Source of the DNA: Euglena gracilis | Taxonomy: Eukaryota | Assembly: GCA_039621445.1 (NCBI GenBank) | Contig: CP154954.1 | Location: 39,889,816-39,944,398, forward strand | DNA length: 54,583 nt | Direction of reading: 5' to 3' | Part shown: positions 7,938 through 37,838 of the stretch, piece after piece | Position numbering within the stretch: position 1 is the first letter of the stretch | How the letters are laid out: each line of letters begins with the position of its first letter | Program-made: the position numbers and the translations under genes | Notes under the pieces: generated by a model | What the model saw: only the letters and a program-made list of their open reading frames with translations | Databases searched by the model: none | What the model was told of the DNA's origin: nothing

Positions 7938-7968
<31 letters not shown>

Positions 7969-10900: not shown

Positions 10901-13900
10901 GTGGGGGGGGGGGCGGGATTTTTGGGGGCCAGATTGCCTCAATGCCAGGAAATTGGGGGGTGCCAAAAAGTGCGACCAGCCCCCGGGACCAGGTCGGCTG
11001 GGTTCCCCGCCCCCAAAAACCCTCTTGCCACCGGATCCACTGCTGGTAAAACACCCCGCAATAGCGAAATTTTGGCAATTTTTTCAGTATAATATATAAT
11101 TCGGGGCGGCTGGTGGGGGGGGGGCGGGATTTTTTGGGGCCAGATTGCCTCAATGCCAGGAAATTGGGGGGTGCCAAAAAGTGCGACCAGCCCCCGGGAC
11201 CAGGTCGGCTGGGTTCCCCGCCCCCAAAAACCCCACTGCCACCGGAACCACTGCTGGTAAAACACCCCGCAATAGCGAAATTGGGGCAATTTTTTAAGTA
11301 CAATTAGGGGAGGCTGGTGGTGGGGGTGGGGCGGGGGGGGGAGGAATTTTGAGGGCCAGATTGCCTCAATGCCAGGAAATTCGGGGGTGCCAAAAAGTGC
11401 GACCAGCCCCCGGGACCAGGTCGGCTGGGTTCCCCGCCCCCAAAAACCCCACTGCCACCGGATCCACTGCTGGTAAAACACCCCGCAATAGCGAAATTTT
11501 GGCAATTTTTTCAGTATAATTCGGGGCGGCTGGTGGGGGTGGGGGGGGGGGCGGGATTTTTGGGGTCCAGATTGCCTCACTGCCAGGAAATTTGGGGGTG
11601 CCAAAAAGTGCGACCAGCCCCCGGGACCAGGTCGGCTGGGTTCCCCCCCCCCCAAAAACCCCACTGCCACCGGAACCACTGCTGGTAAAACACCCCGCAA
11701 TAGCGAAATTTTGGCAATTTTTTCAGTACAATTCGGGGCGGCTGGTGGGGGTGGGGGGGGGGGCGGGATTTTTGGGGGCCAGATTGCCTCAATGCCAGGA
11801 AATTCGGGGGTGCCAAAAAGTGCGACCAGCCCCCGGGACCAGGTCGGCTGGGTTCCCCGCCCCCAAAAACCCCACTGCCACCGGAACCACTGCTGGTAAA
11901 ACACCCCGCAATAGCGAAATTTTGGCAATTTTTTCAGTATAATTCGGGGCGGCTGGTGGGGGTGGGGGGGGGACGGGATTTTTGGGGTCCAGATTGCCTC
12001 AATGCCAGGAAATTCGGGGGTGCCAAAAAGTGCGACCAGCCCCCGGGACCAGGTCGGCTGGGTTCCCCGCCCCCCAAAAACCCCACTGCCACCGGAACCA
12101 CTGCTGGTAAAACACCCCGCAATAGCGAAATTTTGGCAATTTTTTCAGTATAATTCGGGGCGGCTGGTGGGGGTGGGGTGGGGGGGGGGCGGGATTTTTG
12201 GGGGCCAGATTGCCTCAATGCCAGGAAATTCGGGGGTGCCAAAAAGTGCGACCAGCCCCCGGGACCAGGTCGGCTGGGTTCCCCGCCCCCAAAAACCCTC
12301 TTGCCACCGGATCCACTGCTGGTAAAACACCCCGCAATAGCGAAATTTTGGCAATTTTTTCAGTATAATTCGGGGCGGCTGGTGGGGGTGGGGGGGGGGG
12401 GGGGGGGGATTTTTGGGGGCCAGATTGCCTCAATGCCAGGAAATTGGGGGGTGCCAAAAAGTGCGACCAGCCCCCGGGACCAGGTCGGCTGGGTTCCCCG
12501 CCCCCAAAAACCCTCTTGCCACCGGATCCACTGCTGGTAAAACACCCCGCAATAGCGAAATTTTGGCAATTTTTTCAGTATAATTCGGGGCGGCTGGTGG
12601 GGGTGGGGGGGGGGGGCGGGATTTTTTGGGGCCAGATTGCCTCAATGCCAGGAAATTGGGGGGTGCCAAAAAGTGCGACCAGCCCCCGGGACCAGGTCGG
12701 CTGGGTTCCCCGCCCCCCAAAAACCCCACTGCCACCGGAACCACTGCTGGTAAAACACCCCGCAATAGCGAAATTTTGGCAATTTTTTCAGTATTATTCG
12801 GGGCGGCTGGTGGGGGTGGGGGGGGGGCGGGATTTTTGGGGGCCAGATTGCCTCAATGCCAGGAAATTCGGGGGTGCCAAAAAGTGCGACCAGCCCCCGG
12901 GACCAGGTCGGCTGGGTTCCCCGCCCCCCAAAAACCCTCTTGCCACCGGATCCACTGCTGGTAAAACACCCCGCAATAGCGAAATTTCGGCAATTTTTTC
13001 AGTACAATTCGGGGCGGCTGGTGGGGGTGGGGGGGGGCGGGATTTTTTGGGGCCAGATTGCCTCAATGCCAGGAAATTGGGGGGTGCCAAAAAGTGCGAC
13101 CAGCCCCCGGGACCAGGTCGGCTGGGTTCCCCGCCCCCAAAAACCCCACTGCCACCGGAACCACTGCTGGTAAAACACCCCGCAATAGCGAAATTTCGGC
13201 AATTTTTTCAGTACGGGGCGGCTCGTGGGGGAGGGGGGGGGGCGGGATTTTGGGGGCCAGATTGCCTCAATGCCAGGAAATTGGGGGGTGCCAAAAAGTG
13301 CGACCAGCCCCCGGACCAGGTCGGCTGGGTTCCCCGCCCCCAAAAACCCCACTGCCACCGGAACCACTGCTGGTAAAACACCCCGCAACAGCGAAATTTC
13401 GGCAATTTTTTCAGTACGGGGCGGCTCATGGGGGTGGGGGGGGGGGGCGGGATTTTTGGGGGCCAGATTGCCTCAATGCCAGGAAATTCGGGGGTGCCAA
13501 AAAGTGCGACCAGCCCCCGGGACCAGGTCGGCTGGGTTCCCCGCCCCCAAAAACCCCACTGCCACCGGATCCACTGCTGGTAAAACACCCCGCAATAGCG
13601 AAATTTCGGCAATTTTTTCAGTATAATTCGGGGCGGCTGGTGGGGGTGGGGGGGGGCGGGATTTTGGGGGGCCAGATTGCCTCAATGCCAGGAAATTCGG
13701 GGGTGCCAAAAAGTGCGACCAGCCCCCGGGACCAGGTCGGCTGGGTTCCCCGCCCCCCAAAAACCCCACTGCCACCGGAACCACTGCTGGTAAAACACCC
13801 CGCAATAGCGAAATTTCGGCAATTTTTTCAGTATAATTCGGGGCGGCTGGTGGGGGTGGGGGGGGCGGGATTTTTTGGGGCCAGATTGCCTCAATGCCAG

Positions 13901-16900
13901 GAAATGGGTGCCAAAAAGTGCGGCCAGCCCCCGGGACCAGGTCGGCTGGGTTCCCCGCCCCCTAAAACCCTCTTGCCACCGGAACCACTGCTGGTGAAAC
14001 ACCCCGCAATAGCGAAATTTTGGCAATTTTTTTAGTATTATTCGGGGCGGCTCATGGGGGTGGGGGGGGGCGGGATTTTTTGTGGCCAGATGATTGCCTC
14101 AATGCCAGGAAATTCGGGGGTGCCAAAAAAGTGTGACCAGCCCCCGGGACCAGGTCGGAAAAAGTGCGACCAGCCCCCGGGACCAGGTCGGCTGGGTTCC
14201 CCGCCCCCCAAAAACCCCACTGCCACCGGATCCACTGCTGGTAAAACACCCCGCAATAGCGAAATTTCGGCAATTTTTTTCAGTACAATTCGGGGCGGCT
14301 GGTGGGGGTGGGGGGGGGCGGGATTTTTTGGTGCCAGATTGCCTCAATGCCAGGAAATTCGGGGGTGCCAAAAAGTGCGACCAGCCCCCGGGACCAGGTC
14401 GGCTGGGTTCCCCGCCCCCCAAAAACCCCACTGCCACCGGAACCACTGCTGGTAAAACACCCCGCAATAGCGAAATTTTGGCAATTTTTTCAGTATAATT
14501 CGGGGCGGCTGGTGGGGGTGGGGGGGGGCGGGATTTTTGGGGGCCAGATTGCCTCAATGCCAGGAAATTGGGGGGTGCCAAAAAGTGCGACCAGCCCCCG
14601 GGACCAGGTCGGCTGGGTTCCCCGCCCCCAAAAACCCTCTTGCCACCGGATCCACTGCTGGTAAAACACCCCGCAATAGCGAAATTTTGGCAATTTTTTC
14701 AGTATAATTCGGGGCGGCTGGTGGGGGTGGGGGGGGGGGGCGGGAATTTTGGGGGCCAGATTGCCTCAATGCCAGGAAATTCGGGGGTGCCAAAAAGTGC
14801 GACCAGCCCCCGGGACCAGGTCGGCTGGGTTCCCCGCCCCCCAAAAACCCCACTGCCACCGGAACCACTGCTGGTAAAACACCCCGCAATAGCGAAATTT
14901 TGGCAATTTTTTCAGTACAATTCGGGGCGGCTGGTGGGGGTGGGGGGGGGGGCGGGATTTTTTGGGGCCAGATTGCCTCAATGCCAGGAAATTCGGGGGT
15001 GCCAAAAAGTGCGACCAGCCCCCGGGACCAGGTCGGCTGGGTTCCCCGCCCCCAAAAACCCTCTTGCCACCGGATCCACTGCTGGTAAAACACCCCGCAA
15101 TAGCGAAATTTCGGCAATTTTTTCAGTATAATTCGGGGCGGCTGGAAGGGGAGAGCAGGGGAAAAGGCGGGATTTTTTGGGGGCTCAGATTGCCTCATGC
15201 CAGGAATTCGGGTTCCACAAAGTGCCAAAGTGCGGGGGCGTGAGCCCGCCCCCGGTGCACCATCGGGGGTCGTCTGTGGTCCCCGCCCCCTCCCCGGGGG
15301 GAGGGTTTCTATTTTTTGTGTAAAGGGTTTCTTTATTTTTTTTCCCGTCCATTTTGCCCCGCGTAATCCACTCTGCTGAAACCCCCGCAATAAGGCGAAA
15401 TTTCGGGCAATTTTTTCAGTATTATTCGGGGCGGCTGGGGGGGGTGGGGGGGGGAGGGGGCGGGGATTTTTTGGGGCCCAGATGCCTGCCTCAATGCCAG
15501 GAAATTGGGGGGTGCCAAAAAGTGCGACCAGCCCCCGGGACCAGGTCGGCTGGGTTCCCCGCCCCCCAAAAACCCCACTGCCACCGGAACCACTGCTGGT
15601 AAAACACCCCGCAACAGCGATATTTCGGCAATTTTTTCAGTACGGGGCGGCTCATGGGGGTGGGGTGGGGGGGGGGGCGGGATTTTTGGGGGCTAGATTG
15701 CCTCAATGCCAGGAAATTGGGGGGTGCCAAAAAGTGCGACCAGCCCCCGGGACCAGGTCGGCTGGGTTCCCCGCCCCCAAAAACCCTCTTGCCACCGGAT
15801 CCACTGCTGGTAAAACACCCCGCAATAGCGAAATTTTGGCAATTTTTTCAGTACAATTCGGGGCGGCTGGTGGGGGTGGGGTGGGGGGGGGGCGGGATTT
15901 TTGGGGGCCAGATTGCCTCAATGCCAGGAAATTCGGGGGTGCCAAAAAGTGCGACCAGCCCCCGGGACCAGGTCGGCTGGGTTCCCCGCCCCCAAAAACC
16001 CTCTTGCCACCGGATCCACTGCTGGTAAAACACCCCGCAATAGCGAAATTTCGGCAATTTTTTCAGTATAATTCGGGGCGGCTGGTGGGGGTGGGGGGGG
16101 GCGGGATTTTTTGGCCAGATTGCCTCAATGCCAGGAAATTGGGGGGTGCCAAAAAGTGCGACCAGCCCCCGGGACCAGGTCGGCTGGGTTCCCCGCCCCC
16201 AAAAACCCTCCACCCACCGAACCACTGCTGGTAAAACACCCCGCAATAGCGATATTTCGGCAATTTTTTCAGTACAATTCGGGGCGGCTGGTGGGGGTGG
16301 GGGGGCGGGATTTTTTGGTGCCAGATTGCCTCAATGCCAGGAAATTCGGGGGTGCCAAAAAGTGCGACCAGCCCCCGGGACCAGGTCGGCTGGGTTCCCC
16401 GCCCCCCAAAAACCCCACTGCCACCGGAACCACTGCTGGTAAAACACCCCGCAACAGCGAAATTTCGGCAATTTTTTCAGTATAATTCGGGGCGGCTCGT
16501 GGGGGTGGGGTGGGGGGGGGCGGGATTTTTGGGGGCCAGATTGCCTCAATGCCAGGAAATTCGGGGGTGCCAAAAAGTGCGACCAGCCCCCGGGACCAGG
16601 TCGGCTGGGTTCCCCGCCCCCAAGAACCCTCTTGCCACCGGATCCACTGCTGGTAAAACACCCCGCAATAGCGAAATTTTGGCAATTTTTTCAGTATAAT
16701 TTGGGGCGGCTCGTGGGGGTGGGGTGGGGGGGGGCGGGATTTTGGGGCCAGATTGCCTCAATGCCAGGAAATTGGAGGGTGCCAAAAAGTGCGACCAGCC
16801 CCCGGGACCAGGTCGGCTGGGTTCCCCGCCCCCAAAAACCCCACTGCCACCGGATCCACTGCTGGTAAAACACCCCGCAATAGCGAAATTTCGGCAATTT

Positions 16901-17075
16901 TTTCAGTATAATTCGGGGCGGCTCGTGGGGGTGGGGGCGTGGTTTTTTGGGCCAGATTGCCTCAATGCCAGGAAATTGGGGGGTGCCAAAAAGTGCGACC
17001 AGCCCCCGGGACCAGGTCGGCTGGGTTCCCCGCCCCCAAAAACCCCATTGGCACCGGAACGACTGCTGGTTAAAC
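1..17075. repeat. ~211-bp tandem satellite array, ~81 units, extends beyond left edge of window
   Basis: Unit gggccagattgcctcaatgccaggaaatt(c/g)gggggtgccaaaaagtgcgaccagcccccgggaccaggtcggctgggttccccgcccccaaaaaccccactgccaccggaaccactgctggtaaaacaccccgcaatagcgaaattttggcaattttttcagta...G-tract...gcgggatttttt repeated head to tail; variation is mostly homopolymer length plus a few diagnostic substitutions. Confidence 0.99.
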
Positions 17076-17168
17076 ACCAGCAGTGGTTCAAGGGTCAGCT
17101 ATGTCTTCTCAGTGTACGTGTGGGTATGTCTTGGGCTTTTCCACTATCTCAATTCATTTTCTCGACAG

Positions 17169-20100
17169 GTCCCGCCACCCGCCGCCTACGTCGCCCCCGC
17201 CGTGCTCCTGCGGGAAGCGGACGAGGAGGCAGCGGAGTACGAGCAGGATCGCCACGCAGGCCCCGGTGGCCTGGATAGTATCGGGCATGAAAACAGACGA
17301 CCGGTACACACAATCAATTACCCCCCCCCCTGTGCTCACGACCCCGTTATGTCCAATGACCCCCCCCTGCATTTCACAGACACGGCGTCCTGGCGCAAAC
17401 CACAAGGCCAAAAAAATTTGAACCCAAAAGTGGCCAAAAATCAGCCAAAGTTTTTTTGATCAAAAATTGTCGAAATTTCAAAGGGTTTCCCGCACCTCAC
17501 TCCTGCCTTGACAGTTTCTTCACCAAACCAGGGGGATCACTGACTCGTTTTTGTCCCAGACCAAGTCGTCGCAAAGGTGACCCGGCCGCAAAAAATTTTT
17601 TGCCATTTTTTTTCCCGTTCCAGACTCCAAAGCAGCTGACCCGGGGGGGGGGGGCTGGATTTCCAACCTGCCTGGTGCTTGGTGACTGCCCGGTTTTCGG
17701 AAGAGTGGACCCCAGGAGGGATGGTTGCCCGCTCCTCTGTGTGTCCTCTTCTCCTCCGGTGTGGGGGGTTGGACAGGGATGCGAATATTTTTCTTTGCAT
17801 TGGATTCTTTGAAGCCCCCTCCCCCACCTGGCAGTTTTGCATTGCTCAGTAGGGGGTCGACCCCCCTGTGGTTTTTCGCAGTCAAACTCCACAAGGGTTT
17901 TTGACTTTGAAAAATTTTGCAACAAAAGAAAGGGGAGATTTCTCTGGGTTTTTTGTGTTGTTTGTCTCCATTTCATAATTCAGGTTTCTTTTGAACCCCC
18001 CAAATAAACTCCCCCCCCCCCAAAATAACTCCCCTCCCCCCTCGGGGGCCGATTTCGAGCGCCCCAATGACACACACCCTGATTTCCTTTGGTTTCCCAT
18101 GTAAAAAACAACCCCCCCCCCAAAGAACCCCCCCCCCCCCGGGACCCAGCTCGGGTGCCCAAATAACACACCGGGGGGGGGGGTGCCATTTGGATATCCA
18201 AGAAGGTCCAAGTCCATGCCTTCCCGCCAGAGGTTTTCGTTCTGAGAGTTTCACACCCCGCAGAGGTGTAGGAAAAAAGCCTGCATTGCAATTGTGGTGA
18301 AGCCCCCCCCCCCATCAGTCCAGCAGGGTCTGGGGGCAACATCAGCTCCACCCGCCCCAAAACTTGCTGGCCCGCGCGCGCCGCGCTGCCGACCCACTGC
18401 GTGGGATCCGGCAGCTGCTCGAGCAGGCTGTGTTTTTTTTTTGTGGTGTTTATCGAAACAACAAAGCAAAACAAACAAAAAGCAGCCTGACGCCGAGTAT
18501 TGGTGGCTCCTTGAGACCCCCGCTGAGCGGACAACCAGGGCAGAACGGGTGGCCAAACAGACAGGGTGGTGGATGGGGGGGGTCGACCTCCCCACCACAC
18601 CACCGTGTTTCCGGGAACACCAGTTTTTGACCCCAAAGTTTTTTCCGGCGCCAAAGGCGACGGGGAAAAATATGTTATTTATGCTATCCAATATGGTCCA
18701 TCCATGGTATCTAATACAAAATCTGGGAAATTGCTGTGGTGGGGTGGGGGGTCAAACGCCCGCCTCCTGTGTGGGGGTCCTCCCCCCCCACCAGGCCTTC
18801 CCGTTCTGCCCTGGGGGCGGCGAAGGAGATCCAGGTCCGCCACGCGGTGGCGGACCCGGGCCTCTGTGCCCGCTGCCGCCCACGCCCTTCCTTAAATGTG
18901 TGCCCTTCTGTTAAATGTGCGTTGTGGTAACCAGACAAATGCAAAACTGACTACAAATATCTGTCAAAAGTGCCATTTTCGGTTGGAAGGAAACTAACTG
19001 ACTTGGGGGGGGGGCGGGGGTATTTCTGCGGGGGGGGGGGGGAGGGCCACCCCACCTGCCTGTCAAGGTTCCCATGCATGTCAACACAATGACAAAGTAA
19101 CGAAGGGCGTGGGACCACCACCGCCGGCTGGGCATGGTGCAGGCGGAGGTCGCCGGGCGCAGCGTGCCGCTGTGCCCGGCCTGCCGCTTCGCCACGGTGT
19201 GGTCTGCCTTGTGCTTTGCTTCCAAGTCTCTTTTCATTTGCATTGTGCGCCCCCGTCCCCTTAAATTCTGGACTCAGCCTGGACAGTTCTCTTCAAAGCC
19301 ACCTGTGGGGGAAGTGGAATTTCGAGCATGGTGGCCAGGCCCATAATTACCCGCCCCCCCCCCTTGTCGTACGGCCACCCCTCATTTACGACCACCCCCC
19401 CCCCCCCGGACACAAGCTGCAGGTCATGGGGGTGTTACGACCCCCCCCCCCCGGTCACAGATTGCAGGAACCCGGTCGTACAACAATGGAGGGGGGGGGG
19501 CGGGTAACTCAGAAGACCCTGTGGGGATTGTGTGGAGGTCGCTGGGTTTGGGGCCGGTCCAGGTTTGCAAAGGGTGGATCGGGGGGGGGGGGGCAGAACA
19601 AATCACCGAGCGTTAGTTTTTGCAAGGGGAGGGGAAGGCAGGGGAGAACACAATTGTTTTTTTTTGCATTTTTTTGTGTTTTTCTATTTTGATAAAATTT
19701 GTGTTTTTATGTCTGTTGTTGTTGTTGTTGTTTTTTTTTTGCATTTTGTGGGTTTCCTCCTCCCTGTTTTCGAGTTTCAAAAGGGTTTGGGTAAAGATAA
19801 GGGTCAAGGTCTTTTTGACAATGAAAAATTGCTCGGTTTGTCCTGGATTTTCCCCCGAGGCCAAAAATTCTGTCAACCCTTTGTCATTTTTTGTCTTTTT
19901 TCTTTTTTTGGTCAATTAATTATTGCAAAATCGAAAATTTGCCTGATGGAGAATTTTTTCTCTTGTGTTGGAGTGAATGGTGGTCTTGCGGGGGGGGGGG
20001 TACGGGGAAAGAGGGTTTAGACCCCCGGGGGGGTGGGTCCAGACCCTTTCAGACAGAGGGGTCTGGGACCCCCGGGAACCCAAAAAGAGTAAAAAAAAAT

Positions 20101-23100
20101 GAGTGGTGCATTGTTTGACTGATTTTTCAAAAAAAAACATGTGCGAAAACTCAATTTTTGGGGTTTTTTTGACCACTCATTTAGTACCCTGCCCGAGGGA
20201 TGGGGGTCCGGAGACCCCTGGGCTGTGTTTCAGATTTACACCCTCGAATGCCCCCTGCCCCTCACAGTTCGAGAGCGCGCTGCAGGCGCGCGAGGCTGCG
20301 GCGGGACGACCACCCCGCGCACCGCGAACGGTGTGCTTACAATTTTCTCCAGAATGAATCAAAAACTGATAATATTCAAAAGAAGACAAATTTGGTGCCG
20401 TGCAGCTTTCTAAAGGCAATGACGATGGTGAGGGATGCGCATGGGTTTCTGTCTAATCCCCGCAATGCGCCAAATATAGGGCATTTTCGACCCCTCTGGG
20501 GGGGGGGTCGGGTTTTGGGACCCCCCCAGGCTGTATTTTAGTCGGGTGTCGACCCCACCCCGGGGGGGGGGGGTGCCTGCCCAGGCAGGCACCCCAAAGC
20601 ACTCCAAATCCCCCCGGGGGGGGGGTAGGGCACATGGCCAAAAGTGCCCTAGCACAACCCCGGCGCCAAAGGCGCCGGGGAGCCAAAAATGGCCTATTTT
20701 CAAAGGAATGTGCCCGGGCACAGGCCGAAATCCGACCCCCCCCGGGGGGGGGGGTAGTGCCTGCCTGGGCAGGCACTCACAGGCACTCCGGACCCCCCCC
20801 TCCCCCCCCCGGGGTTGGTAAAAAACAGCCTGCCCCCCCCCCGGCGCCGAATGGATTGGCCTCCGAAAATTGGCCTGGCCGGCAGGCTCCGAGAGGCACA
20901 AAGCACAGGGCCCCCCCAGGTTGGTGAAAAGAAGCCTGATCTTCTGACGTCACTCCCCCAAATGTTTTGCATTTTGTGGGTTGACTCGCAGAAAAGCACA
21001 CATTTTGTTTGCACTGCATTATTTTTGGTTGCCATTTTCCTAGGCGGCGAGGGGGAATTCATCATCTCATATCGTTTTCCCTCTCACAGGTCCGCGGCTG
21101 GTGGCTGGTGCCCCTGCTGCTCGCCCCGATCGTTGCTGCGGGCTGGACACACAGAGCCCATTGGCGTTGGCATTTGGGGTCAGAGAAAAGGAAAGTTGGA
21201 ATTTGGGAGCACAACCCGGATGATTGGGTTTGAGTCACTGCCAGCGTTGCGTTTCACTCAAAGGAATTTGACAAAACGTTGGAAGTCTGGGTTTTTTTTG
21301 TTGGGGCAGGGTTTGATATAAGGAGGGCGTACATGGTTTAGGTGGGGGGGGTGTCCCCCCCCACCCCCCCCCCCTCCTGGCCCGCAGGGGGGGTCCGGAC
21401 CACCCCCCCCCCACCTGCAAGGGGGGTCCGGACCGACCCTGGGGGGCAAAAATTGACCCCCCCAAAAAGGGTCAATTTTTTCCTCCGGCGCTTCGCGCCG
21501 AAAATTTTTTGCATTTTTGGCACATTTTTGCCCAAAAAGTGCCCAAAATGGCACTTTTGGTCGTTTTGGGGGGTCAAAAATTTTCGGCCCAGCGCTTCGC
21601 GCCGGGCCGAAAATTCGGCCACCCTGACCGCGCACCTGTTTAGGTGGGGGGGGGTATCCCCCCCCCCCCCCCCCCCCCCCTGGCCCGCAGGGGGGGGGTC
21701 CGGCCCACCCCCCCCCACCTGTCCTTATATCGAACCCTGACTGGGGGTTAGATTGGTGCTGTTAACCCCCGGCAAATCGAGTCAACATGTTTTGTTGAGA
21801 TGTGAATAATTTCTTTTTTTTAATCATCATCATCATCATTGTCATTGTTGTTGTTGTTGTTGTTGTTGTTCGTTGTTGTTGTTGTTGTTGTTGTTGTTGC
21901 TATTGCTATCATCATCATCATCATCATGAGGTGCATTGACCTACCAACGGGCCCTGCTGTTGATCCTGCCGACCACCGACAGCCGCCTGGCCAACACGCT
22001 GGCGTGGCTGGCCAGGGTTGTATGGGAACTCCACAGCCACAGGCGTGAGACAGGTGGTAGGGGTCCCCCCCCCTGGGGGAGTGAGGTGGCAGGGGGGTCC
22101 CCCCCCCCCCCCCCCCCCGGTTTCAGAAGGGGTCCCCCACCCCCTCCCCCTCCTCTGCAGGGGCAAATAAAAATCTTCCGGCGCTTCGCGTTGGGTGTGC
22201 ATTTTTGGACCCTCTTGAAGCTCAATATGAAACTTTGGCAAAATGGGCAAGATTGGTCGAAAAATGGCTGTAATTTGGGTCAGGTGGGGAGTTGAGAGGA
22301 AATCAAATTGGCATTTCAAGGGCTTCAATTAAGGCATCTGACACCTCTTTATTCCCCATCTTTTATTCCCCACCACTGCACCATTTCAGAGAAATTTCAA
22401 GAAAAAATCAATTTTTTGATCCAAACAGGGCCAAAAATTTTCGGTGACCGAACACTGGAGGTAGGGGGGGATCCCCCTCACCCCCCAGTCCCCTCCTCCT
22501 CCGAGATTCCCATACAAGCCTGCGGCTGGCGGTGGTCACCACGTACAGCTGGCTGTACGTGGACTGCCTGCGGCCGCGGCTGCGGTGGGTCGCCGCCCTG
22601 TACCCCTGCACCGCAATCGGGGTGCCCTTTGCGGTTGGTTCGTTTCGAGGGGGGGGGAGGGTTACCTTCAAGTTCATTCGCAATCCCCCAACGGGTTCGG
22701 TGGATCAACTGCCATTTGTCTCTCATCCAAATTCAACTTCCCCTCCCCTCCCCCCCTCCCGGGCAGAGGGCCCTCCGCCGCCAGCCGTCGCCGCCATCGT
22801 CCACGCCATCGACCGCCGCCTGCGTGAACAAGTCGAGGGCAACGGCTACGGCGGGCCACACCCTGTCTCATCCCTCCCTCTTGTGACCGGTTGGCTTGGC
22901 TTGGCGTCTCCCTGGTCCCTCCCCAGGGATGGATTGGAAGCATTTTGGTTTGAAGGTGAGGGGAGGCCCCTTCCTGGAGGTTGGGGGGGTCAGGACCCCC
23001 CTTTCTTTATGGCAAAAATATATCTTTTGGCGCGCCGAAAAATGAACAAACATGCCCCTTTTCCTCACTTTTGAGCACATTGCCCATTTTTTTTTGATGG

Positions 23101-26100
23101 TTTGGTGCTTTCCGCAGCTAAAGTGTTCACATTTTTTGAGGAATTCATTTTCAAAGAAAAATCAAGGGCTTTTCAACAATTTTGGTCTGGCCCCCAAGGC
23201 ACTCCGGACCCCCCCCCAGGTTGGTAAAAAACAGGCTGGTCCCCTCTCTCCCCCTGTCCCTTTTGAGCCGGGGCGTGGCGGCACAACGCCGCCTACGCCG
23301 CCCTCCGCGTGGCCCACACGTGGGCCATCGTGGTGGGCGCCGTGGGCGACCTCGCCGTCCACGCCCTGCTGCTGGGGCCAGGCCCGTCCCCCCCTTTTTT
23401 TTCGGCCCCTCCCGGTTGGCGACTTGGCCACATTCCTGGAAGAGCCTGGAAATCCGGATAGATGCGTTTAAAGCCCTCATCATTGAAGGACAAAAGTGCT
23501 GGACTTGGCAATTGGGGTCAGGAGTGTGAAATGCAGGTAAACGGAATTTGCAGGCATCACATGTTTTTTTGAATCGCTTTGTTGCACTCCGCCTGTTTCC
23601 CGATTGGGTTTCTTTCAGGTCCAATGGGTGCCTTTCGGCTCACAATTTGAAGGCGATCCAAAGTTCTCCAAACCTCGCGGGCCGTTTGTTTCCCACCCCC
23701 ACCCCAAGCGGGTTCCCGGGGGGGCCGGCCTGCGGCCAAGTGCCCGCCCCCTTCATCAACCCCACCACGCCCCTCCAGCGGTGGAGGGACGCGCAGCCGC
23801 CGCCGCCGCCCGGGCCCGTGGCGAAGGCGAAGGCGGTGGTGCGGGAGATCCGGCGCCGGCTGTGGCCTGCCGGGCAGGCCCTTCCTGAAGGGCACCCGCC
23901 CCTCCCCCTGCCTTTCTGCATTGCAAGTCCCACGCAGACAATCACTCACTGATCAGTGGGGTATCCCATCCCGACCAGGTTTTTTTTAGCTTTGGACCTC
24001 CTGGGGGGTGGGGGGGGGCAGGGTGGGTGGGTCCAGCCAAGCCCCCCATGGGGGGGGTCCCCCCAGGGGGAGTGGGATGCCCTTTTCGGCGCTGAAGGTG
24101 CCGAAATTTTTTGAAAAAGGTGCTTTTTTTTAGCATTTTTCGCGATTTTTCGGCCATTTTCGGTGGGTCCCCTGGGACCCCCCTGGGGTGGGTGGGTGGA
24201 TTGATTGGTTTTTTGGGTGGACGTGACCCCTGGGATCAGTGTAAAGAAGTTTGTGCAGTCCCCCCTCCACACGGTCTCTTTGAAGAAGCGACAGGGTGCC
24301 AAGCCCCCCTCTTCTGGTGCAAATCCCAGGCACCCCTCCCCCGCCATCTTTGGCAACGGCCTGTCGCTGCCCGGCGTGCGGAACCGCCTGCGCCGCCGGC
24401 CGCGCCGGCTGTCGCGCCAGCTGCGCCGCCGGCCGAGCTGCCGGCCGCGCCGGCCGCTGAAGCAGCAGCGGTGGCGCAACCCCAGCCAGGGCACATAAAA
24501 CATGGCACACGAAGCGCACAACAAAATACAATTTCTATCTTCTGTCCTCCTTTCCAGGGGTTTTTTTCATCGTGGACTCCGGGGGGTGGGTGGGTGGGTG
24601 GGTGGGGCCCCGGGACCCGGGGGGGGGGGTCCCCCTGGAGGGGGCTGGGATGTGCTTTTCAGCGCTTTTTTGAAAAGGTGCTATTTGTTGCACGTTTCGC
24701 GATTTTCGGCCATTTTTTTTTGTGGGTCCCCCGACCCCCCCCCCCCAGGGAGGCCGGTTGGTGGGCGGGGGACCTCCCCCCGGTCTTAAGAAAAACCCCT
24801 GCTCCTTTCTAAATGAATGGGGAACAGGGAATTTCTTAAGGGCCCCCCCCGGGGGGGTCCAGCCTCCGGCTGGCAAAAAAGGCTGCTGGCTGGATTTGAG
24901 CTGCTGGCTGGACCCCCCCGGCGGGGGGGGGGGGGGTGGGGGGTCCGGGACTGGAGGGGACTGGGCTGGGCTGGGTCGAGGAAAAACAAAAATTTTTGAC
25001 ACATTTTTGTCACTTTAGACATTTTGATGGGTGGAGCTAGATCAAGGCTGGGGGGCTGTGCCAGGCTGTATTTTAGTCGGGTGCCGACCCCACCCCGGGG
25101 GGGGGGTGCCTGCCTGGGCAGGCACCCCAAGGCACTCCAAATCCGACCCCCCCCCGGGGGGGGGGGAGGGCACACGGCCAAAAGTGCCCTAGCACAACCC
25201 CGGCGCCAAAGGCGCCGGGGAGCCAAAAATGGCCTTTTTTCAAAGGAATGTGCCCGGGCACAGGCCGAAATCCGACCCCCCCCTGGGGGGGTAGTGCCTG
25301 CCTGGGCAGGCACTCACAGGCACTCCGGACCCCCCCCCCGGGGTTGGTAAAAAACAGCCTGGGCTGTGCTGGAGGGGCTGTGATGAGGAGAAAAAAAGCA
25401 AGGATAAGTGACTGGTGGGACCCAGGCCCAGCCTGAGTCCCAGGCTGGACCTGGGCCTCAGGTCCAGCCCGGAGGCCGGGCTGGACCCAGTTTTATTTTA
25501 CTCGACCCCCAGGAGGGGGGCTCCCAGCCCGAATTTGGACTGCTGGCTGGATTTGAGCTGCTGGCTGGCTGGATTCCCCCGGGGGGGGGGTAGGGTACCC
25601 TCCGGCTTACCCCCCCCTCCCCTAGTCGTACGACCACCCCTCATTTACGACCACCCCCCGGTCACAGGTTGCAGGTCATGGGGGTGTTATGACCACCCCC
25701 CCCGGTCACAGGTTGCAGGTTGCGAAAAATTTGGCACCACCTTACCTACAACCGCCGCCTCGTTTATGACCACCCCCCGGTCACAGGTTGCAGGTTATGG
25801 GGGTGTTACGACCACCCCCCCCGGTCACAGGTTGCAGGAACCCGGTCGTACGACTAGGGGAGGGGGGGGTACGAAATTCCCTGATGGGGAAGGAGCAAAA
25901 AAAAAGACATTCAATGCATAACACAGCCCATCTGGGGCTGGGGTTGAATATCCATTTTTTTCACTGAGGGCTTTCCAAAAGAGTTGCCAGAGCCCCCTGC
26001 TTCCCTGTCCAGGAAATTTCTTCCCGTGAGTGATGAAGAATACTCGAAAACCAATAAAATTTTTACACGCAAAGTGAAAATTCAGCTCAAAAAACAGGAG

Positions 26101-26879
26101 AATGTTTTTTTTTTGGAGATAATTAAGCATGGGGGGTGTCTCTTTGGCTCGGGGCGGCTCACGGTTTTGATTTTTTCCCTCCTCGCCAGTGAACGTTTTT
26201 TGAGCCCGCCCAGCTTTGGCTTTGGTGGGGGATTGGCAATTTTCAGGTTGGGGCGCAGCTTAAGAAAATTTGATCCCATGGGGGGTTCCAGCCCAGGGTT
26301 CGATATAAGGAGGGCGCCCAGGGTTCAGGTGTGGTCTGGACCCCCCCCCCCACCCCCCTCCTGGACCACCCTGCCAAGGGGGTCCGGACCAACCCTGGGG
26401 GGTTCCGGGACCCCCCACCCCCACCTGCCTTGAGATCGAACCCGGCTCCAGCCAGCCAGCAGCCTTTTTTCCAGCATGGGACCCCCTCCCGCCCTCAACG
26501 AGTTTTATTTATTTCCAGCCTCCCTTTGGGGGGGGGGCAAAAAAATGGGCCAAAAATGGACAAAAATGGCGAAATTGGAAAAGGGCTGGTCAGGGCAAAT
26601 TTGGGCCCTTTTCTTTGCATGATTGGCAGTTGTTTTGGATTTTTTTTTGCCATTTCGATTTTTTTTTTGGTGCCTGCTTCGACAGGACCGGGAGGGGGCA
26701 GGGGTCAGCCAGCAGCCTTATTCCAGCCAAGCCAATTTTCCAGCTTCTGAGCTGGACCTCCATCCTTAAGCTACGCCCTGGCCCAGGGAACTGCAACGGC
26801 GCATGGCGCTGTGCCCTGCGCACGGCCCAATGCCCTGAAGAGGGCGTGGCGGAAGCTGAAGCGCAAGCTGCACCGGTGA
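17169..26879 (+). CDS. Multi-exon gene (5'-partial) for an uncharacterised multi-pass membrane protein with a CxxC-x19-CxxC motif and a Pro/Ala-rich then basic C-terminus, ~383 aa
   Basis: Exons 17169-17259 (or 17265), 17380-17406, 17560-17576, 18319-18420, 18495-18532, 18819-18877, 19117-19196, 20268-20330, 21090-21148, 21962-22009, 22528-22614, 22783-22850, 23268-23375, 23738-23871, 24369-24483 and 26824-26879 join in phase to 1152 nt, mostly GC3-rich, ending TGA. Translation includes LLEYWWLLETPAERTAKEIQVRHAVADPGLCARCHHRRLGMVQAEVAGRSVPLCPACRFATFESAL, GWWLVPLLLAPIVAAGWTILP, LAWLAVVTTYSWLYVDCL and RPNALKRAWRKLKRKLHR*. The first four exons are less certain. Confidence 0.8.
18421..18494 (+). 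other. Nonconventional (euglenid-type) intron, 74 nt
   Basis: c|gag CAGGCTG...CAGCCTG acgcc|g; whole intron folds as a hairpin; joins ...QLL|EYWW in frame. Confidence 0.75.
18533..18818 (+). other. Nonconventional intron with perfect 14-bp TIR
   Basis: c|aac CAGGGCAGAACGGG ... CCCGTTCTGCCCTG ggggc|g; joins ERT|AKEIQ in frame. Confidence 0.85.
18878..19116 (+). other. Nonconventional intron, CAC...GTG variant
   Basis: c|gcc CACGCCCTTCCTTA ... TAACGAAGGGCGTG ggacc|a (13/14 paired); joins CARC|HHRRLG in frame. Confidence 0.85.
19350..19504. mobile_element. MITE family E, short copy, TA TSD (Tc1/mariner-like)
   Basis: ta|cccgcccc..ttgtcgtacg ... cgtacaacaa..ggggcggg|ta; internal acgaccacccc..ggtcacag repeats shared with 25610-25869. 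Confidence 0.75.
20527..20832 (+). mobile_element. MITE family A (hAT-like)
   Basis: TIR caggctgtatttt / aaaaaacagcctg; near-identical to 25062-25361 and, inverted, to 34343-34637. Confidence 0.9.
21307..21739 (+). mobile_element. MITE family B (hAT-like)
   Basis: TIR cagggtttgatataagga / tccttatatcgaaccctg; near-identical copy at 32091-32494. Confidence 0.9.
21823..21927. repeat. Compound (ATC)n-(GTT)n-(ATC)n microsatellite
   Basis: Trinucleotide runs read directly. Confidence 0.9.
22010..22527 (+). other. Nonconventional intron that is a recognisable MITE with near-intact 8-bp TSD
   Basis: TIR CAGGGTTGTATGGGAA / TTCCCATACAAGCCTG (15/16); flanks tggctggc / cggctggc (7/8); joins LAWL|AVVTT; related element at 33116-33885. 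Confidence 0.9.
22615..22782 (+). other. Nonconventional intron, CGG...CCG variant
   Basis: c|aat CGGGGTGCCCTTTGC ... GCAGAGGGCCCTCCG ccgcc|a (12/15); joins CTA|AVAAIV, whereas the nearby GT-AG pair would shift the frame. Confidence 0.75.
23376..23737 (+). other. Probable nonconventional intron
   Basis: CAGGCCCGTCCCCC / GGGGGGCCGGCCTG (12/14); joins LLL|EVPAPF in frame; 5' junction is g|g rather than Y|R, so the exact boundary is uncertain. Confidence 0.6.
23872..24368 (+). other. Nonconventional intron (an in-frame GC-AG alternative 23878-24329 also exists)
   Basis: c|ggg CAGGCCCTTCCTGAAG ... CTTTGGCAACGGCCTG tcgct|g; joins LWPA|ARRAEP. Confidence 0.65.
24555..24801 (+). mobile_element. 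MITE family C, diverged copy
   Basis: caggggttttttt ... aaaaacccctg; perfect 8-bp TSD ctcctttc. Confidence 0.9.
25062..25361 (+). mobile_element. MITE family A
   Basis: TIR as above; perfect 8-bp TSD ggctgtgc. Confidence 0.93.
25610..25869. mobile_element. MITE family E, TA TSD
   Basis: ~25-bp TIR cccc..tcccctagtcgtacgacc / ggtcgtacgactaggggagggg; TA on both sides; 4 internal ccggtcacaggttgcagg repeats. Confidence 0.88.
26294..26445 (+). mobile_element. Short family B-like MITE nested in an older element (~26249-26780)
   Basis: cagggttcgatataagg ... ccttgagatcgaacccgg; TSD ttccagcc/ctccagcc. Confidence 0.75.
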
Positions 26880-26884: not shown

Positions 26885-26959
<75 letters not shown>

Positions 26960-26987
26960 GGGGGGGGGGGGGGGGGGGGGGGGGGGT

Positions 26988-27021
<34 letters not shown>

Positions 27022-27119
27022 GTTGGGGGGGGGGGGGGGGGGGGGGGTTGTTTTTGGGGGTGGGTGGGGGGGGGGGGGGGGGAGGGGGGGGGGGGGGGGG
27101 GGGGGGGGGGTGTTGGGGG
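26885..27119 (+). repeat. ~235-nt near-pure poly-G tract immediately after the stop codon
   Basis: Read directly; exact length probably unreliable. Confidence 0.9.
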
Positions 27120-27458
27120 TGATGAGCAGCACCGCGCACAAGTCAGGAACCACGTGTCGATTTCCAGGGCAGAATGGGAATCCCGGAACCCCAATGAGGG
27201 TGGGGGTGGGGGGGGAGGTTGATCCCCCAGCCTTTCCCAGGTTTCCACAGGCGCCAATTCTCGAGGTCGTTTCATTCGCTTGCAGGCAGGTAGTCCCCAC
27301 TCACCGCAGTCAAGGTGAGTTTTTTCCCCCACAAATCCACAAAATTTTCTGAAAAGAAAACATTTGTTGCAAAACGCCGGGAAGAAAAAATTTGGTTCCA
27401 GGGGTGCCCCACCCCCTCGGCCTGATAGGGGAGGAGGGGATTGGTTCATTTCAGGAGC

Positions 27459-27744
27459 CAGGGATTTTTTTAAGTTTGGACCCCCGGGGGGGGGGAGGGG
27501 GGGGGTAGGGTGGGTGGGTCCGCCGGACCCCCTCCCCCCGGGGGGGGTCCCCCCAGAGGGGGGTGGGATATACTTTTCGGCGCCGCAGGCGCCGAAAAAA
27601 TTCTATTTTTAGCACTTTTCGCGATTTTTCGGCCATTTTTTGTGGGTCCCCCGGGACCCCCTCCCCCCCCAGGGGGGGCCCCCCAAGGGGGTGGGTGGGT
27701 GGGGGGGGACCCCCCCTCCCCCCCCGGTCTTAAAAAAACCCCTG
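27459..27744 (+). mobile_element. MITE family C
   Basis: TIR cagggatttttttaag / cttaaaaaaacccctg; perfect TSD tcaggagc. Confidence 0.93.
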
Positions 27745-29230: not shown

Positions 29231-30727
29231 CGGTAGACTGGGGGGGGGGTAGTGGGTAGTCGGCCGACTAGTCGGCCGACTACCCAATTGGTCCACCGAC
29301 TAGTCCTAGTCGGTAGCTAGTCGGCGAGACAGGGGGGGGGGGGTAGTGGGTAGTCGGCCAACTAGTCGGCCGACTACCCACTCTAATGTACTAACGGGTC
29401 AAAACCGCCGACTTTTAAGCCCCCCCCCATGAACAAAATCCAATGCAAACTAGTCGGTGGCTAGTCGGCGGTCATAAAAATGGTCTGTGGCGGGCCCAAA
29501 TCACCCGGAAATGGTCCGGATGGGTCCAAATAAGTGTCTTACGCCTAAATAAACACCCCCAGATGGAAATCTTTGGTCAGTGGGGGGTCGGTGGGCCCTT
29601 GATGGGGGTCCGGAGGGGTAAAAAACCAATGATGAAACAGGGATTACATTAAAATCCTTTAGAAATGCAATCTGCAATCTGCGTTTTGCATCACGAGAGG
29701 CAGAAAACTCCCCCCTCCACCCCAATCCGAGACTCAAATAACAAAATCCCTTCTGTGTTGGCAACGTACTCGGGGGCTAAGTCGTTTTTGTGGCTCACTT
29801 TGGCATAGGCGGGGGGGGCTCCGCCCCCCCCCGCACCTGCCCCCTCAAATAACAAAATCCCTTCTGTGTTGGCAACATACTCGGGGGCTAAGTCGTTTTT
29901 GTGGCTCACTTTGGCATAGGCGGGGGGGTGGCTCCGCCCCCGCCGCACCCCGCCCTCAAATACCAAAATCCCTTCTGTGTTGGCAACATACTCGGGGGCT
30001 AAGTCGTTTTTGTGGCTCACTTTGGCATAGGCGGGGGGGGCTCCGCCCCCCCCGCACCCCCCCCTCAAATAACAAAATCCCTTCTCTGTTGGCAACATAT
30101 TCGGGGGCTAAGTCGTTTTTGTGGCTCACTTTGGCATAGGCGGGGGGGCTCCGCCCCCCCCCCCGCAGCTCCACCCTCAAATAACAAAATCCCTTCTGTG
30201 TTGGCAACATACTCGGGGGCTAAGTCGTTTTTGTTGCTTACTTTGGCATAGGCGGGGGGGGCTCCGCCCCCCCCCGCACCCCCCCCCTCAAATAACAAAA
30301 TCCCTTCTATGTTGGCTATAGACTTGGGGGATAAGACCCTTTTTTTGTGCAAATTTTGACTTATATTGAAAATTCAATGGGGAGAGGTGTACTTTTGTCA
30401 AAAGTGGCCCAAAATGGACATTTTCCCCCAATTTTTTTGCATATTCACCCCCGATTGGGGGGTTCTGGAGCCATTTGGGTCGGTTTTGACCGGCGTTGAG
30501 GTGATTTAGACATTTTTTTTTACCAGGGGGGGGGCTTAAAAGTCGGCGGTTTTGACCCGTTAGTACATTAGAGTGGGTAGTCGGCCGACTAGTCGGCCGA
30601 CTACCCACTACCCCCCCGCCGACTAGCCACCGACCAATTAGTCGGCCGACTAGTCGGTGGACCAATTGGGTAGTCGGCCGACTAGTCGGCCGACTACCCA
30701 CTCCCCCCCCCCCCCCCCAGTCTACCG
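29231..30727. mobile_element. Foldback-like element with ~200-bp TIRs built from TAGTCGGCCGAC palindromic units and an internal tandem array
   Basis: 29231-29428 is the reverse complement of ~30527-30727; TSD ambiguous (possibly TA within cggTAccg). Confidence 0.85.
29733..30318. repeat. ~111-bp tandem repeat, 5 full units plus a partial
   Basis: ctcaaataacaaaatcccttctgtgttggcaacatactcgggggctaagtcgtttttgtggctcactttggcataggcggggggg repeated. Confidence 0.95.
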
Positions 30728-32090: not shown

Positions 32091-32494
32091 CAGGGTTTGA
32101 TATAAGGAGGGCGTACATGGTTTAGGTGGGGGGTGTCCCCCCCCCTCCTGGCCCGCAGGGGGGGTCCGGACCCCCCACCTGCCAGGGGGGTCCGGACCGA
32201 CCCTGGGGGGCAAAAATTGACCCCCCCCAGAAAGGGTCAATTTTTTCCTCCGGCGCTTCGCGCCGAAAATTTTTTGCATTTTTGGCACATTTTTGCCCAA
32301 AAAGTGCCCAAAATGGCACTTTTGGTCGTTTTGGGGGGTCAAAAATTTTCGGCCCGGCGCTTCGCGCGGGGCCGAAATTCGGCCACCCTGACCGCGCACC
32401 TGTTTAGGAGGGGGGGGTCCCCCCACCCCCCCCCCCCCCGGCCCCCAGGGGGGGTCCGGACCACCCCCCCCACCTGTCTTTATATTGAACCCTG
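32091..32494 (+). mobile_element. MITE family B
   Basis: TIR cagggtttgatataa / ttatattgaaccctg; TSD ggcacccc/ggcacttc. Confidence 0.9.
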
Positions 32495-32780: not shown

Positions 32781-33042
32781 CAGGGGTTTTTTTCAGTCGG
32801 GGCCCCCCGGGGGGGGGGGGGCAGGGTGGGTGGGTCCGGCCGAGCCCCCCCGGGGGGGTCCCCCCGGAGGGGGGTGGGATATACTTTTCTGCGCCACAGG
32901 CACGAAAAAAATTCTATTTTTAGCACTTTTCGCGATTTTTCGGCCACTTTTTTGTGGGTCCCCCGGGACCCCCCGGGGGGGCCCCCCAGGGGGTGGGTGG
33001 GTGGGGGGACCCCCCTCCCCCCCGGTCTTAAAAAAACCCCTG
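32781..33042 (+). mobile_element. MITE family C
   Basis: caggggttttttt ... aaaaaaacccctg; perfect TSD ctccgatt. Confidence 0.92.
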
Positions 33043-33115
33043 CTCCGATTGTTGTCCTCCCTGAATGGTGGTGCATCACATCACAGCCAACCAGCCCCTG
33101 TGTGGGCGACCCCCC

Positions 33116-33885: not shown

Positions 33886-34292
33886 CCCCCCCCCCCAAAC
33901 CCCCCCAATCCCCCCAACCCCCCCCCACCACCACCAGGGCCATGGGCACCAAGTGGTGCTGGCCCCTGGCGCGGGTGGTGGCCCCCTGGACGGAAGACGC
34001 TGCCTCCCCCGACCACCTTGGCCAACGCCTCCGCCGACCACCTTGGCCAACGCCTCCGACGACTGCGCCACAGCGTCGCCCACCGCCACAGCCCACCACA
34101 GCCTACCACAGCGTCGCCCACCGGACATCTCGCCCTTCAGCCTTCAGTGCCCCCCGGTTCCCCAGTTTCAGCCAGGCCACTGTTTTTTTCCCCCTTGCTC
34201 AAAGGACTCGGCGGTTCTGGGAGGGGGTTGCTGGGGTTGGAACCAGGACGTCGCTTAAACTGAAGGCCCCACCCCCAGGGACAGATGGGAAG

Positions 34293-37820: not shown

Positions 37821-37838
37821 ACCGCAGTGACCCCGGCC

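Follow-up and report, generated by a model that had tools for sequence, protein, structure and literature searches.

A euglenid-type nuclear gene, apparently split by eight or nine putative nonconventional introns, lies on the + strand of the Euglena gracilis DNA analysed here (a stretch of 54,583 nucleotides, hereafter the window). The best overall explanation, which we hold for gene and introns jointly with moderate confidence, is that these introns obey the published euglenid splicing code and that at least one of them derives from insertion of a MITE with an 8-bp target site duplication (TSD). As the first-pass annotation had claimed, nine segments without GT-AG ends could be placed in this single gene, each taken from 3 nt outside a 5' arm to 5 nt outside the 3' arm, and two conventional GT-AG introns lie beside them. 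These features are listed below, 'flanks' giving the identity of the paired 8-nt flanks and slashes the exon borders.

18421-18494, + strand: nonconventional intron 1, 74 nt; core 18424-18489, arms CAGGCTGT.../...CAGCCTG; flanks 4/8
18533-18818, + strand: nonconventional intron 2, 286 nt; perfect 14-bp arms beginning CAGGGCAGAACGGG; flanks 4/8
18878-19116, + strand: nonconventional intron 3, 239 nt; CAC...GTG type, 10-bp arms; flanks 4/8
19197-20267, + strand: GT-AG intron, ACG/GTGTGG...CTCACAG/; ends unpaired in the rule register
20331-21089, + strand: GT-AG intron, ACG/GTGTGC...CTCACAG/; ends unpaired in the rule register
21149-21961, + strand: nonconventional intron, 813 nt; arms CAGAGCCC..., housing a family-E MITE (21307-21739); flanks 1/8
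22010-22527, + strand: nonconventional intron, itself a family-D MITE copy with a 16-bp TIR (element 22013-22522); flanks 7/8
22854-23282, + strand: nonconventional intron, 429 nt; CAC...GTG type, including a family-B 3' fragment; flanks 1/8
23376-23737, + strand: nonconventional intron, 362 nt; arms CAGGCC...; flanks 0/8
23890-24303, + strand: putative nonconventional intron of 414 nt; CACCC/GGGTG helix weak (5 bp), boundaries uncertain
24484-26823, + strand: doubtful ninth intron of 2340 nt; arms 9 bp long (CAGGGCACA), crowded with MITEs

None of the nine candidates combines a GT or GC start with an AG end. Their anchors are CAG...CTG in six cases and CAC...GTG in three; the CGG type, also named in the first-pass annotation, was found in none of them. 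The first exon base after the intron is a purine in 8/9 (the exception, a C, follows 23890-24303). The euglenid code reads N3-CDG...CH'G-N5-6/R, has been tested by knock-in in E. gracilis and is strict for the 3-nt spacer, with 5 nt preferred on the other side (Nomura et al., PNAS 2025, PMC12501133). Judged by anchors, the six CAG/CTG introns fall inside this code and the three CAC/GTG introns (e.g. 18878-19116) outside it, the spacers being set by the placement rule; that the cell's machinery uses the 3/5 spacing is taken from published papers. The gene resembles known euglenid nonconventional introns (PMC12501133; Milanowski et al. 2014/2016) in its non-GT-AG ends, in the pairing of CAG at +4..+6 with CTG at -8..-6, in the exon +1 purine and in the presence of GT-AG introns in the same gene, but differs in its three CAC...GTG introns and in that one intron can be assigned to a repeat family with a target duplication.

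Unconstrained MFE folds of whole introns (the 2340-nt intron left out) paired +4..+6 with -6..-8 in 7/8 candidates, so that a structure bringing the ends together, as expected of euglenid nonconventional introns, was found in seven of the eight introns folded. The closing helix measured 8 bp in 18421-18494 and 14 bp in 18533-18818; two of the three anchor pairs formed in 23376-23737. End pairing in the rule register was seen in neither of the two GT-AG introns, in 2/210 random segments and in 51/200 random segments anchored by CAG..CTG.

Splicing the nine candidates together with the two GT-AG introns yields a frame free of stops from 18301 to 4 codons past the last junction. This is a weak test, because 30/36 exon frames are open irrespective of the model. 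We also followed the GC3 periodicity of the exons flanking each junction, a phase test independent of stops; the periodicity is strong (16/16, 27/27, 31/31 and 34/36 in exons). Taking out the TIR-to-TIR span and a further 8 nt agrees with the GC3 phase at 7/8 informative junctions (p about 0.003, assuming a 1/3 chance per junction), although the test constrains the extra length modulo 3 only, so that 2, 5, 8 or 11 nt would all fit. Six junctions agree outright (including those of 18533-18818, 18878-19116, 21149-21961 and 23376-23737), and 22854-23282 agrees on condition that 22528-22853 is a single exon. The two GT-AG introns taken together also preserve the phase. The earlier claim that the frame is restored at all nine junctions is accordingly narrowed to these seven, since the test is uninformative for 18421-18494 and contradicts 24484-26823 (L mod 3 = 2 needed, 0 present). 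In the latter case the ORF stops 4 codons past the junction if spliced and at TAA 24496 if unspliced, and the CDS may end at that TAA instead of continuing across a ninth intron.

It is highly unlikely, in our judgement, that the gene model is wrong, any number of the nine introns not being spliced as drawn, whether through the use of conventional sites or because the region is GC-rich non-coding DNA or a pseudogene. Such a reading could draw on the openness of most exon frames under any model, on the same-phase GT/GC-AG pairs that lie within 15 nt of 6/9 candidates, and on the phase failure of 24484-26823. It could also draw on the weak helix of 23890-24303. This segment contains a degraded family-A MITE and allows other same-phase pairings. 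The predicted protein is an orphan in which Cys-x2-Cys pairs and stretches of hydrophobic residues occur, and a homologue search with the largest exon found no match, hence no check of the junctions by homology. Against this, the strong exon periodicity switches phase as the rule predicts at 7/8 junctions, and the hairpins that close the whole-intron folds are those in the rule register. Moreover, reading through the introns runs into stops in 7/9, and two of them have no conventional alternative (18878-19116, without a same-phase GT/GC-AG pair within 15 nt, and 21149-21961). We infer that the candidate introns are spliced in vivo.

MITEs with CAGG... termini and TIRs of 14-18 bp fall into at least five families in the window. 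The following copies were delimited, with no strand assigned.

24555-24801: family A, perfect 8-bp TSD CTCCTTTC
27459-27744: family A, perfect 8-bp TSD TCAGGAGC
32781-33042: family A, perfect 8-bp TSD CTCCGATT
48081-48380: family A, perfect 8-bp TSD ATAGTGAC
25062-25361: family B (CAGGCTGTATTTT...), perfect 8-bp TSD GGCTGTGC
20527-20832: family B copy within the GT-AG intron 20331-21089, C-rich flanks 6/8
24825-25883: family C, perfect 8-bp TSD ATGGGGAA, nested elements inside
33116-33885: family D, second copy, in C-rich non-coding DNA; flanks 6/8, of low complexity
26294-26445: family E, TSD 7/8 (TTCCAGCC/CTCCAGCC)
21307-21739 and 32091-32494: family E copies, flanks 5/8 and 6/8, respectively

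The length of the duplication is directly apparent. A scan from position 15300 to the window end for CAG..CTG inverted-repeat pairs (at least 10/12 paired, 50-1500 bp) returned 108 pairs with a bimodal distribution of flank identity: six pairs matched at 8/8, one at 7/8 and two at 6/8, against a background mode of 2. With the register shifted by 1-3 nt, only 0-3 pairs had seven or more matches. Among 12 elements of the five families the TSD is perfect in six, 7/8 in two and 6/8 in three. The MITEs with CAG...CTG TIRs and perfect 8-bp TSDs described in the first-pass annotation are thus borne out by six register-specific copies, three of which lie inside 24484-26823. The family-A core gave no matches in a metagenome scan.

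Family D was found both as an intron (22010-22527) and as a non-coding copy (33116-33885), i.e. one family and one intron. The two copies match at the 5' end, at the 3' end and in an internal block, and the 16-mer terminus of the intron has 10 matches at three or fewer mismatches against 1.1 expected. Its putative duplications (22005-22012, TGGCTGGC; 22523-22530, CGGCTGGC) agree at 7/8 positions, and a match this good or better has a chance of 0.0022 among random pairs from this gene region. A point against the MITE reading is that GGCTGGC is a common 7-mer here (10 copies in 39 kb). The 518 nt removed have the modulo-3 value that the flanking exons require by GC3 (16/16 and 34/36), whereas the element alone (510 nt) does not; read through, the intron meets a stop after 95 codons. 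For 18421-18494 the link is terminal: the octamer CAGGCTGT at its 5' end occurs three times in the window, the other two being family-B MITE 5' ends, and judging from these shared termini this intron probably also arose by MITE insertion.

Summed over all nine introns, the 8-nt flank identity is 27/72, compared with 15-26 in shifted registers and 28.5 expected from mismatched flank pairs, and is therefore at background level. Only the single young-looking intron 22010-22527 carries the signal, and for the old introns the result falls under the first-pass annotation's own refutation criterion. The annotation's proposal that elements with 8-bp TSDs are the source of the introns finds support in the family-D copy and in the family-B termini of 18421-18494, but not in the summed flanks.

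These data bear on an alternative that we consider unlikely, in which the 3/5 spacing evolved for other reasons and the CAG-ended MITEs with 8-bp TSDs are unremarkable transposons that resemble the code by chance and whose presence in exons is tolerated now and then. Most nonconventional introns would then have spread otherwise, e.g. via circular RNA, and 3+5=8 would explain the tolerance of the superfamily and not the origin of introns or offsets. Consistent with this, 7/9 introns lack both a TSD signal and relatives in the window (termini are repeated elsewhere in only 2/9), and flank identity is just 4/8 for 18533-18818 and 18878-19116, whose helices (14 bp and 10 bp, respectively) are the most perfect of the set. 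Three introns carry CAC...GTG termini, for which no similar MITE was seen in the window. The intron origin is called unclear in PMC12501133, and nonconventional introns are reported to leave as circles, by machinery described as non-spliceosomal (PMC11282704). On the other hand, the essential CAG/CTG motif is also what the MITEs end in, and the spacers add up to the TSD length; with age, an intron is expected to lose the half of each TSD that lies on its own side; and a 54-kb window is too small to reveal the family membership of most introns. Under the reading we prefer, that of MITE insertion, 22010-22527 at least and 18421-18494 probably would have originated in this way, and the remaining introns would be older or may have another origin, any duplication signal being lost.

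The elements may be hAT-like, on the grounds of TSD length, short TIRs and CAG start. hAT transposons have a terminal consensus pyrimidine-A-purine-N-G and favour target sites with T at position 2 and A at 7. Of the five families, four (A, C, D and E; CAGGG) fit this consensus and family B (CAGGC) departs from it at position 5; T at position 2 is found in 4/7 TSDs and A at position 7 in 2/7. Compared with hAT MITEs (Ac/Ds-like), the elements share the exact 8-bp TSD, TIRs of 14-18 bp and the CAG start, but no transposase or autonomous copy was seen in the window (a Pfam scan of 10 of the 23 ORFs that reach 230 aa gave no match) and the target-site preference is not evident.

Possible, if rather doubtful, is that the elements are true intron sources mobilised by a non-hAT superfamily with 8-bp (8-9-bp) TSDs, such as Merlin, P or MULE. 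The incomplete match to the hAT target preference and the absence of a hAT domain from the 10 ORFs scanned would suit this, as would the report of two Merlin families in E. gracilis that make 8-bp TSDs (PMC8101967). Merlin TIRs, however, are described there as starting with GG and spanning 24-462 bp, and the elements here start with CAGG and have TIRs of 14-18 bp; their CAG start would agree with the hAT terminal consensus. Short TIRs (10-25 bp) with 8-bp TSDs are the published description of hAT elements (PMC3942097), and Ds is cited as the creator of a maize intron (Giroux et al. 1994, cited in PMC3935182).

A close parallel lies in introners and further introns derived from transposons (Micromonas, Amoebophrya, Polarella, Fritillaria; PMC11282704), where a TIR element is removed with one TSD copy, so that an exonic insertion is silent, and where families likewise have non-genic copies. 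Introners differ in having TSDs of 3-5 nt, in being mostly spliceosomal and in taking splice sites from the element or the TSD (PMC11282704), whereas the elements here have 8-bp TSDs and the position of each cut would be set by its distance from the hairpin (3 and 5 nt). That nonconventional introns stem from MITEs and carry 'TSD-like' repeats has already been proposed in print in general terms; in our literature searches, 8 bp, hAT and 3+5=8 were not named by any paper. The present proposal is a testable refinement of a known hypothesis, its observation partly confirmed and its interpretation partly supported.

The non-autonomous inverted-repeat transposons that crowd the surrounding DNA end in the same CAG...CTG hairpin as the introns and duplicate 8 bp of target; according to this proposal, RNA cuts lying 3 nt (5' side) and 5 nt (3' side) outside that hairpin would remove the element plus exactly one target-duplication length. 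The pre-insertion reading frame would thereby be regained in either orientation of the element. For this arithmetic, already put forward in the first-pass annotation, speak the MITE termini, the 8-bp TSDs and the published spacers; the summed intron flanks speak against it. We infer that the 3+5=8 match is causal and not coincidental. More tentatively, and a little short of what we would call probable, the splicing code may be a molecular ruler fitted to a single 8-bp-TSD (hAT-like) superfamily, whose terminal CAG...CTG hairpin the machinery would read, cutting 3 nt and 5 nt outside it. If so, every exonic insertion of this superfamily, in either orientation, would be erased from the mRNA together with one TSD. 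Such a ruler would account for the asymmetric spacers and for the large share of nonconventional introns in E. agilis (about 72% of its introns), and the published 'slidable' direct repeats would be decaying 8-bp TSDs.

The gene on the + strand is built of G+C-rich segments, strongly periodic in third-position G+C, alternating with segments of lower G+C content. Eleven predicted introns were placed in it, two with GT-AG ends and nine that follow a rule by which the intron starts 3 nt before the 5' arm of a terminal inverted repeat (TIR) and ends 5 nt after the 3' arm, i.e. TIR span plus 8 nt.

Predicted introns of the + strand gene
18421-18494, + strand, rule-following intron
18533-18818, + strand, rule-following intron
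18878-19116, + strand, rule-following intron
19197-20267, + strand, GT-AG intron
20331-21089, + strand, GT-AG intron
21149-21961, + strand, rule-following intron
22010-22527, + strand, rule-following intron
22854-23282, + strand, rule-following intron
23376-23737, + strand, rule-following intron
23890-24303, + strand, rule-following intron, helix only 5 bp
24484-26823, + strand, rule-following intron, doubtful

As the first-pass annotation had claimed, the nine rule-following introns lack GT-AG ends, a GT/GC start being combined with an AG end in 0/9. They are anchored on CAG...CTG (six introns) or CAC...GTG (three introns), and in 8/9 a purine opens the following exon. Unconstrained MFE folds of whole introns (the 2340-nt intron excluded) paired positions +4 to +6 with -6 to -8 in seven of eight cases; in the fold of 23376-23737 two of the three anchor pairs were formed. 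The same pairing was found in 2/210 random segments and in 51/200 random segments anchored on CAG and CTG, and was absent in this register from the MFE folds of both GT-AG introns. Intron 23890-24303, with its 5-bp helix, also has alternative same-phase pairings. Same-phase GT/GC-AG pairs, which might serve as conventional splice sites instead, occur at most 15 nt away in six of the nine introns, and 18878-19116, 21149-21961 and 24484-26823 have none.

Removal of all eleven introns leaves the frame open from 18301 onwards, up to a TGA that lies four codons past the last junction. Because 30/36 exon frames are free of stops regardless of the model, this continuity is weak proof of the junctions and was dropped as such. 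A test independent of stop codons compares the removed length modulo 3 with the value linking the preferred GC3 phases of the flanking exons (codon phase inferred from G+C at third codon positions), a preference near saturation in several exons (27/27, 16/16, 34/36 and 31/31). The removed length fitted at 18533-18818, 18878-19116, 21149-21961, 22010-22527, 23376-23737 and 23890-24303, and also at 22854-23282 provided that 22528-22853 is a single exon. The junction of 18421-18494 was uninformative, its upstream exon having two tied phases, and 24484-26823 failed (mod-3 value needed 2, found 0). Agreement was thus seen at 7/8 informative junctions (p ~0.003 if each has a one-in-three chance). 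The earlier claim of a frame restored at all nine junctions agrees with this test at these seven and disagrees at 24484-26823; the stop-free test adds little to it. TIR-to-TIR span alone fitted at no junction where span plus 8 nt did. The test fixes the extra length modulo 3 only, with 2, 5, 8 or 11 nt all compatible. Read-through would hit a stop within 7/9 introns, and the remaining two have frame-shifting lengths.

The ninth intron, 24484-26823, is doubtful: unspliced, the frame stops at TAA 24496, and spliced, it stops four codons later, while the exon downstream prefers a different GC3 phase. A GT-AG intron at 22634-22767 was ruled out, as it breaks both frame and GC3 phase. Extending the nonconventional rule to the two GT-AG introns, with CGG as anchor (19192-20272 and 20326-21094), was likewise rejected, as the pair would shift the following exon out of its GC3 phase. 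These two introns have near-identical borders (ACG/GTGTG...CTCACAG/) and partly pairable ends, and may belong to the class discussed as 'intermediate' in euglenids; between them lies a 63-nt exon without clear GC3 phase. A search of 1.8 billion representatives for protein homologues of the largest exon (22529-22852) returned one 7691-aa protein only, with no reported stretch.

The 54.6-kb window contains no N, has ~58% G+C and yielded no family and no tRNA in Rfam and tRNA scans; the intron type is what points to a euglenid. Its first third is occupied by a 210-bp satellite (1-15212, 72 copies, 92% matches) and a related 215-bp array (15366-17078, 8 copies), beyond which short inverted-repeat elements and poly-C/poly-G runs are dense. 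Long runs of this kind are common across the window and present within most MITE families, and a 226-nt near-pure G run (26885-27110) directly follows the TGA of the last GC3-periodic exon (26824-26879). Other tandem repeats have units of 111 bp (29733-30335, 5 copies), 442 bp (36014-37821, 4 copies) and 29 bp, the last a minisatellite with all six frames open (43494-45076, 55 copies).

Excluding the satellite, a screen for CAG...CTG inverted repeats with at least 10/12 positions paired and 50-1500 bp apart gave 108 pairs; for each, we matched the 8 nt upstream of CAG against the 8 nt downstream of CTG. Pairs with 0 to 8 flank matches numbered 10, 23, 27, 16, 17, 6, 2, 1 and 6, respectively, i.e. 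the background has its maximum at 2, and the pairs with 8 matches form a spike of their own. When the downstream flank was shifted by 1-3 nt, 0-3 pairs had at least 7 matches. This register-specific spike, six 8/8 pairs among 108, bears out the earlier observation of MITEs with CAG...CTG TIRs and perfect 8-bp TSDs.

MITEs with perfect 8-bp TSDs
24555-24801, MITE, TSD CTCCTTTC
24825-25883, MITE, TSD ATGGGGAA
25062-25361, MITE, TSD GGCTGTGC
27459-27744, MITE, TSD TCAGGAGC
32781-33042, MITE, TSD CTCCGATT
48081-48380, MITE, TSD ATAGTGAC

The doubtful intron 24484-26823 holds three of these six copies. MITE family A comprises four copies aligning over ~250-300 bp and a degraded copy within 23890-24303, and a metagenome scan for extra copies gave 0 matches. 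Four further families (B, C, D and E) were recognized, and the family TIRs are 14-18 bp long, all starting CAGG. A second kind of element has C-rich 28-bp inverted repeats with TA on both sides (25608-25871 and about 19352-19507), suggestive of a TA duplication like that of Tc1/mariner-type MITEs; one copy sits inside the 3' arm region of family C and another lies within GT-AG intron 19197-20267. The flank pair GACCCCCC / CCCCCCCC is shared by a family B copy (20519-20840 with flanks) and a family D copy (33108-33893 with flanks), which suggests that elements have inserted more than once into the C-run of a different repeat. At 34974-34989 (- strand) a terminus-like 16-mer, CAGGGATGAATGGGAA, resembles the family D end, with no partner arm identified.

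Summed over the nine introns, 8-nt flank identity was 27/72, against 15-26 in shifted registers and 28.5 expected from mismatched flank pairs, i.e. no aggregate TSD signal. Judged by the comparison with other offsets that the first-pass annotation proposed, the old introns lend the idea no support, and the introns with the most perfect helices reached only 4/8.

One intron can be linked to MITEs, and a second probably so. Judged from its sequence, 22010-22527 belongs to a repeated family (family D): its first ~30 nt, last ~36 nt and an internal ~80-nt block match the copy at 33116-33885 with 79-90% identity. The 16-nt family terminus is exact at both 5' ends and inverted with 1-2 mismatches at both 3' ends, and at up to 3 mismatches it has 10 matches versus 1.1 expected. 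The element is preceded by TGGCTGGC and followed by CGGCTGGC (7/8), the sole mismatch sitting in the copy removed with the intron. Such 7/8 identity has a frequency of 0.0022 for random position pairs in the gene region, or ~2% for one or more of nine, with the caveat that GGCTGGC is a rather common 7-mer in this region. The 518 nt removed (510-nt element + 8) have the mod-3 value that the flanking exons need, and 510 alone does not. Intron 18421-18494 opens with the octamer CAGGCTGT, the other two of whose three occurrences in the window are family B 5' ends; its arms agree with those of family B at 12/13 positions, and its flanks have CGAG in common (4/8). No terminal relatives of the remaining seven introns occur in the 54 kb, a window too small to expect them. 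A putative second copy of the 18533-18818 TIR (27165-27178) was discarded, being a solitary 13/14 match to the 5' arm with no partner arm and at chance level in a shuffle control.

On the best reading, the nonconventional splicing system would act on CAG-ended elements with 8-bp TSDs. With cuts 3 and 5 nt beyond the hairpin, an insertion in an exon would leave the transcript together with one duplication length, restoring the original message whichever orientation the element has. The sequence demonstrates the anatomy behind this mechanism and one such intron; splicing in vivo, the generality of the mechanism and its causality we infer. Calling the elements hAT is a plausible guess, given the exact 8-bp TSD, short TIRs and CAG start; short TIRs and 8-bp TSDs are described for hAT elements (PMC3942097). 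The label fails the one direct test that the window allows: of its 23 ORFs of at least 230 aa, 10 were scanned with Pfam and none gave a transposase. Another 8-bp-TSD superfamily is a possible source; Merlin elements with 8-bp TSDs are reported from E. gracilis, with TIRs starting GG (PMC8101967).

MITE-like insertions were first proposed by Milanowski et al. (PMC3935182), and a review describes frequent TSD-like repeats at junctions and, as a general principle for introners, removal of the element plus one TSD (PMC11282704). In E. agilis, nonconventional introns make up 71.8% of the total, and they carry CAG three nucleotides in from the 5' end and CTG at -8 (Nomura et al., PMC12501133). The knock-ins of that study in E. 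gracilis require a 5' spacer of 3 nt and work best with a 3' spacer of 5 nt, 6 being tolerated, giving the code N3-CDG...CH'G-N5-6/R; 84.4% of introns are 'slidable' owing to short direct repeats. This genome-scale work of 2025 calls the origin unclear, with MITE-like elements as a possible source, and treats the spacers of 3 and 5 nt as empirical, with no reason offered. Full-text searches returned no paper that states how long a duplication flanks the nonconventional introns of euglenids (Fig. 1B or the datasets of PMC12501133 may hold the distribution), names hAT for them or ties the two spacers to a duplication. Our finding is a sharpened, testable version of a published hypothesis, not a new kind of system.

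Where euglenid nonconventional introns come from has stayed unsettled since the MITE-like proposal of 2013-14. Should the two spacers add up to the target duplication of the seeding elements, the 3/5 rule would gain a simple explanation and the transposon class would be identified. The idea would be testable at once with existing data, i.e. the 649,158 RNA-supported E. agilis introns and the EgGSL2 knock-in assay in E. gracilis, and, if true, would be a case of transposon-driven intron gain that bypasses the spliceosome.
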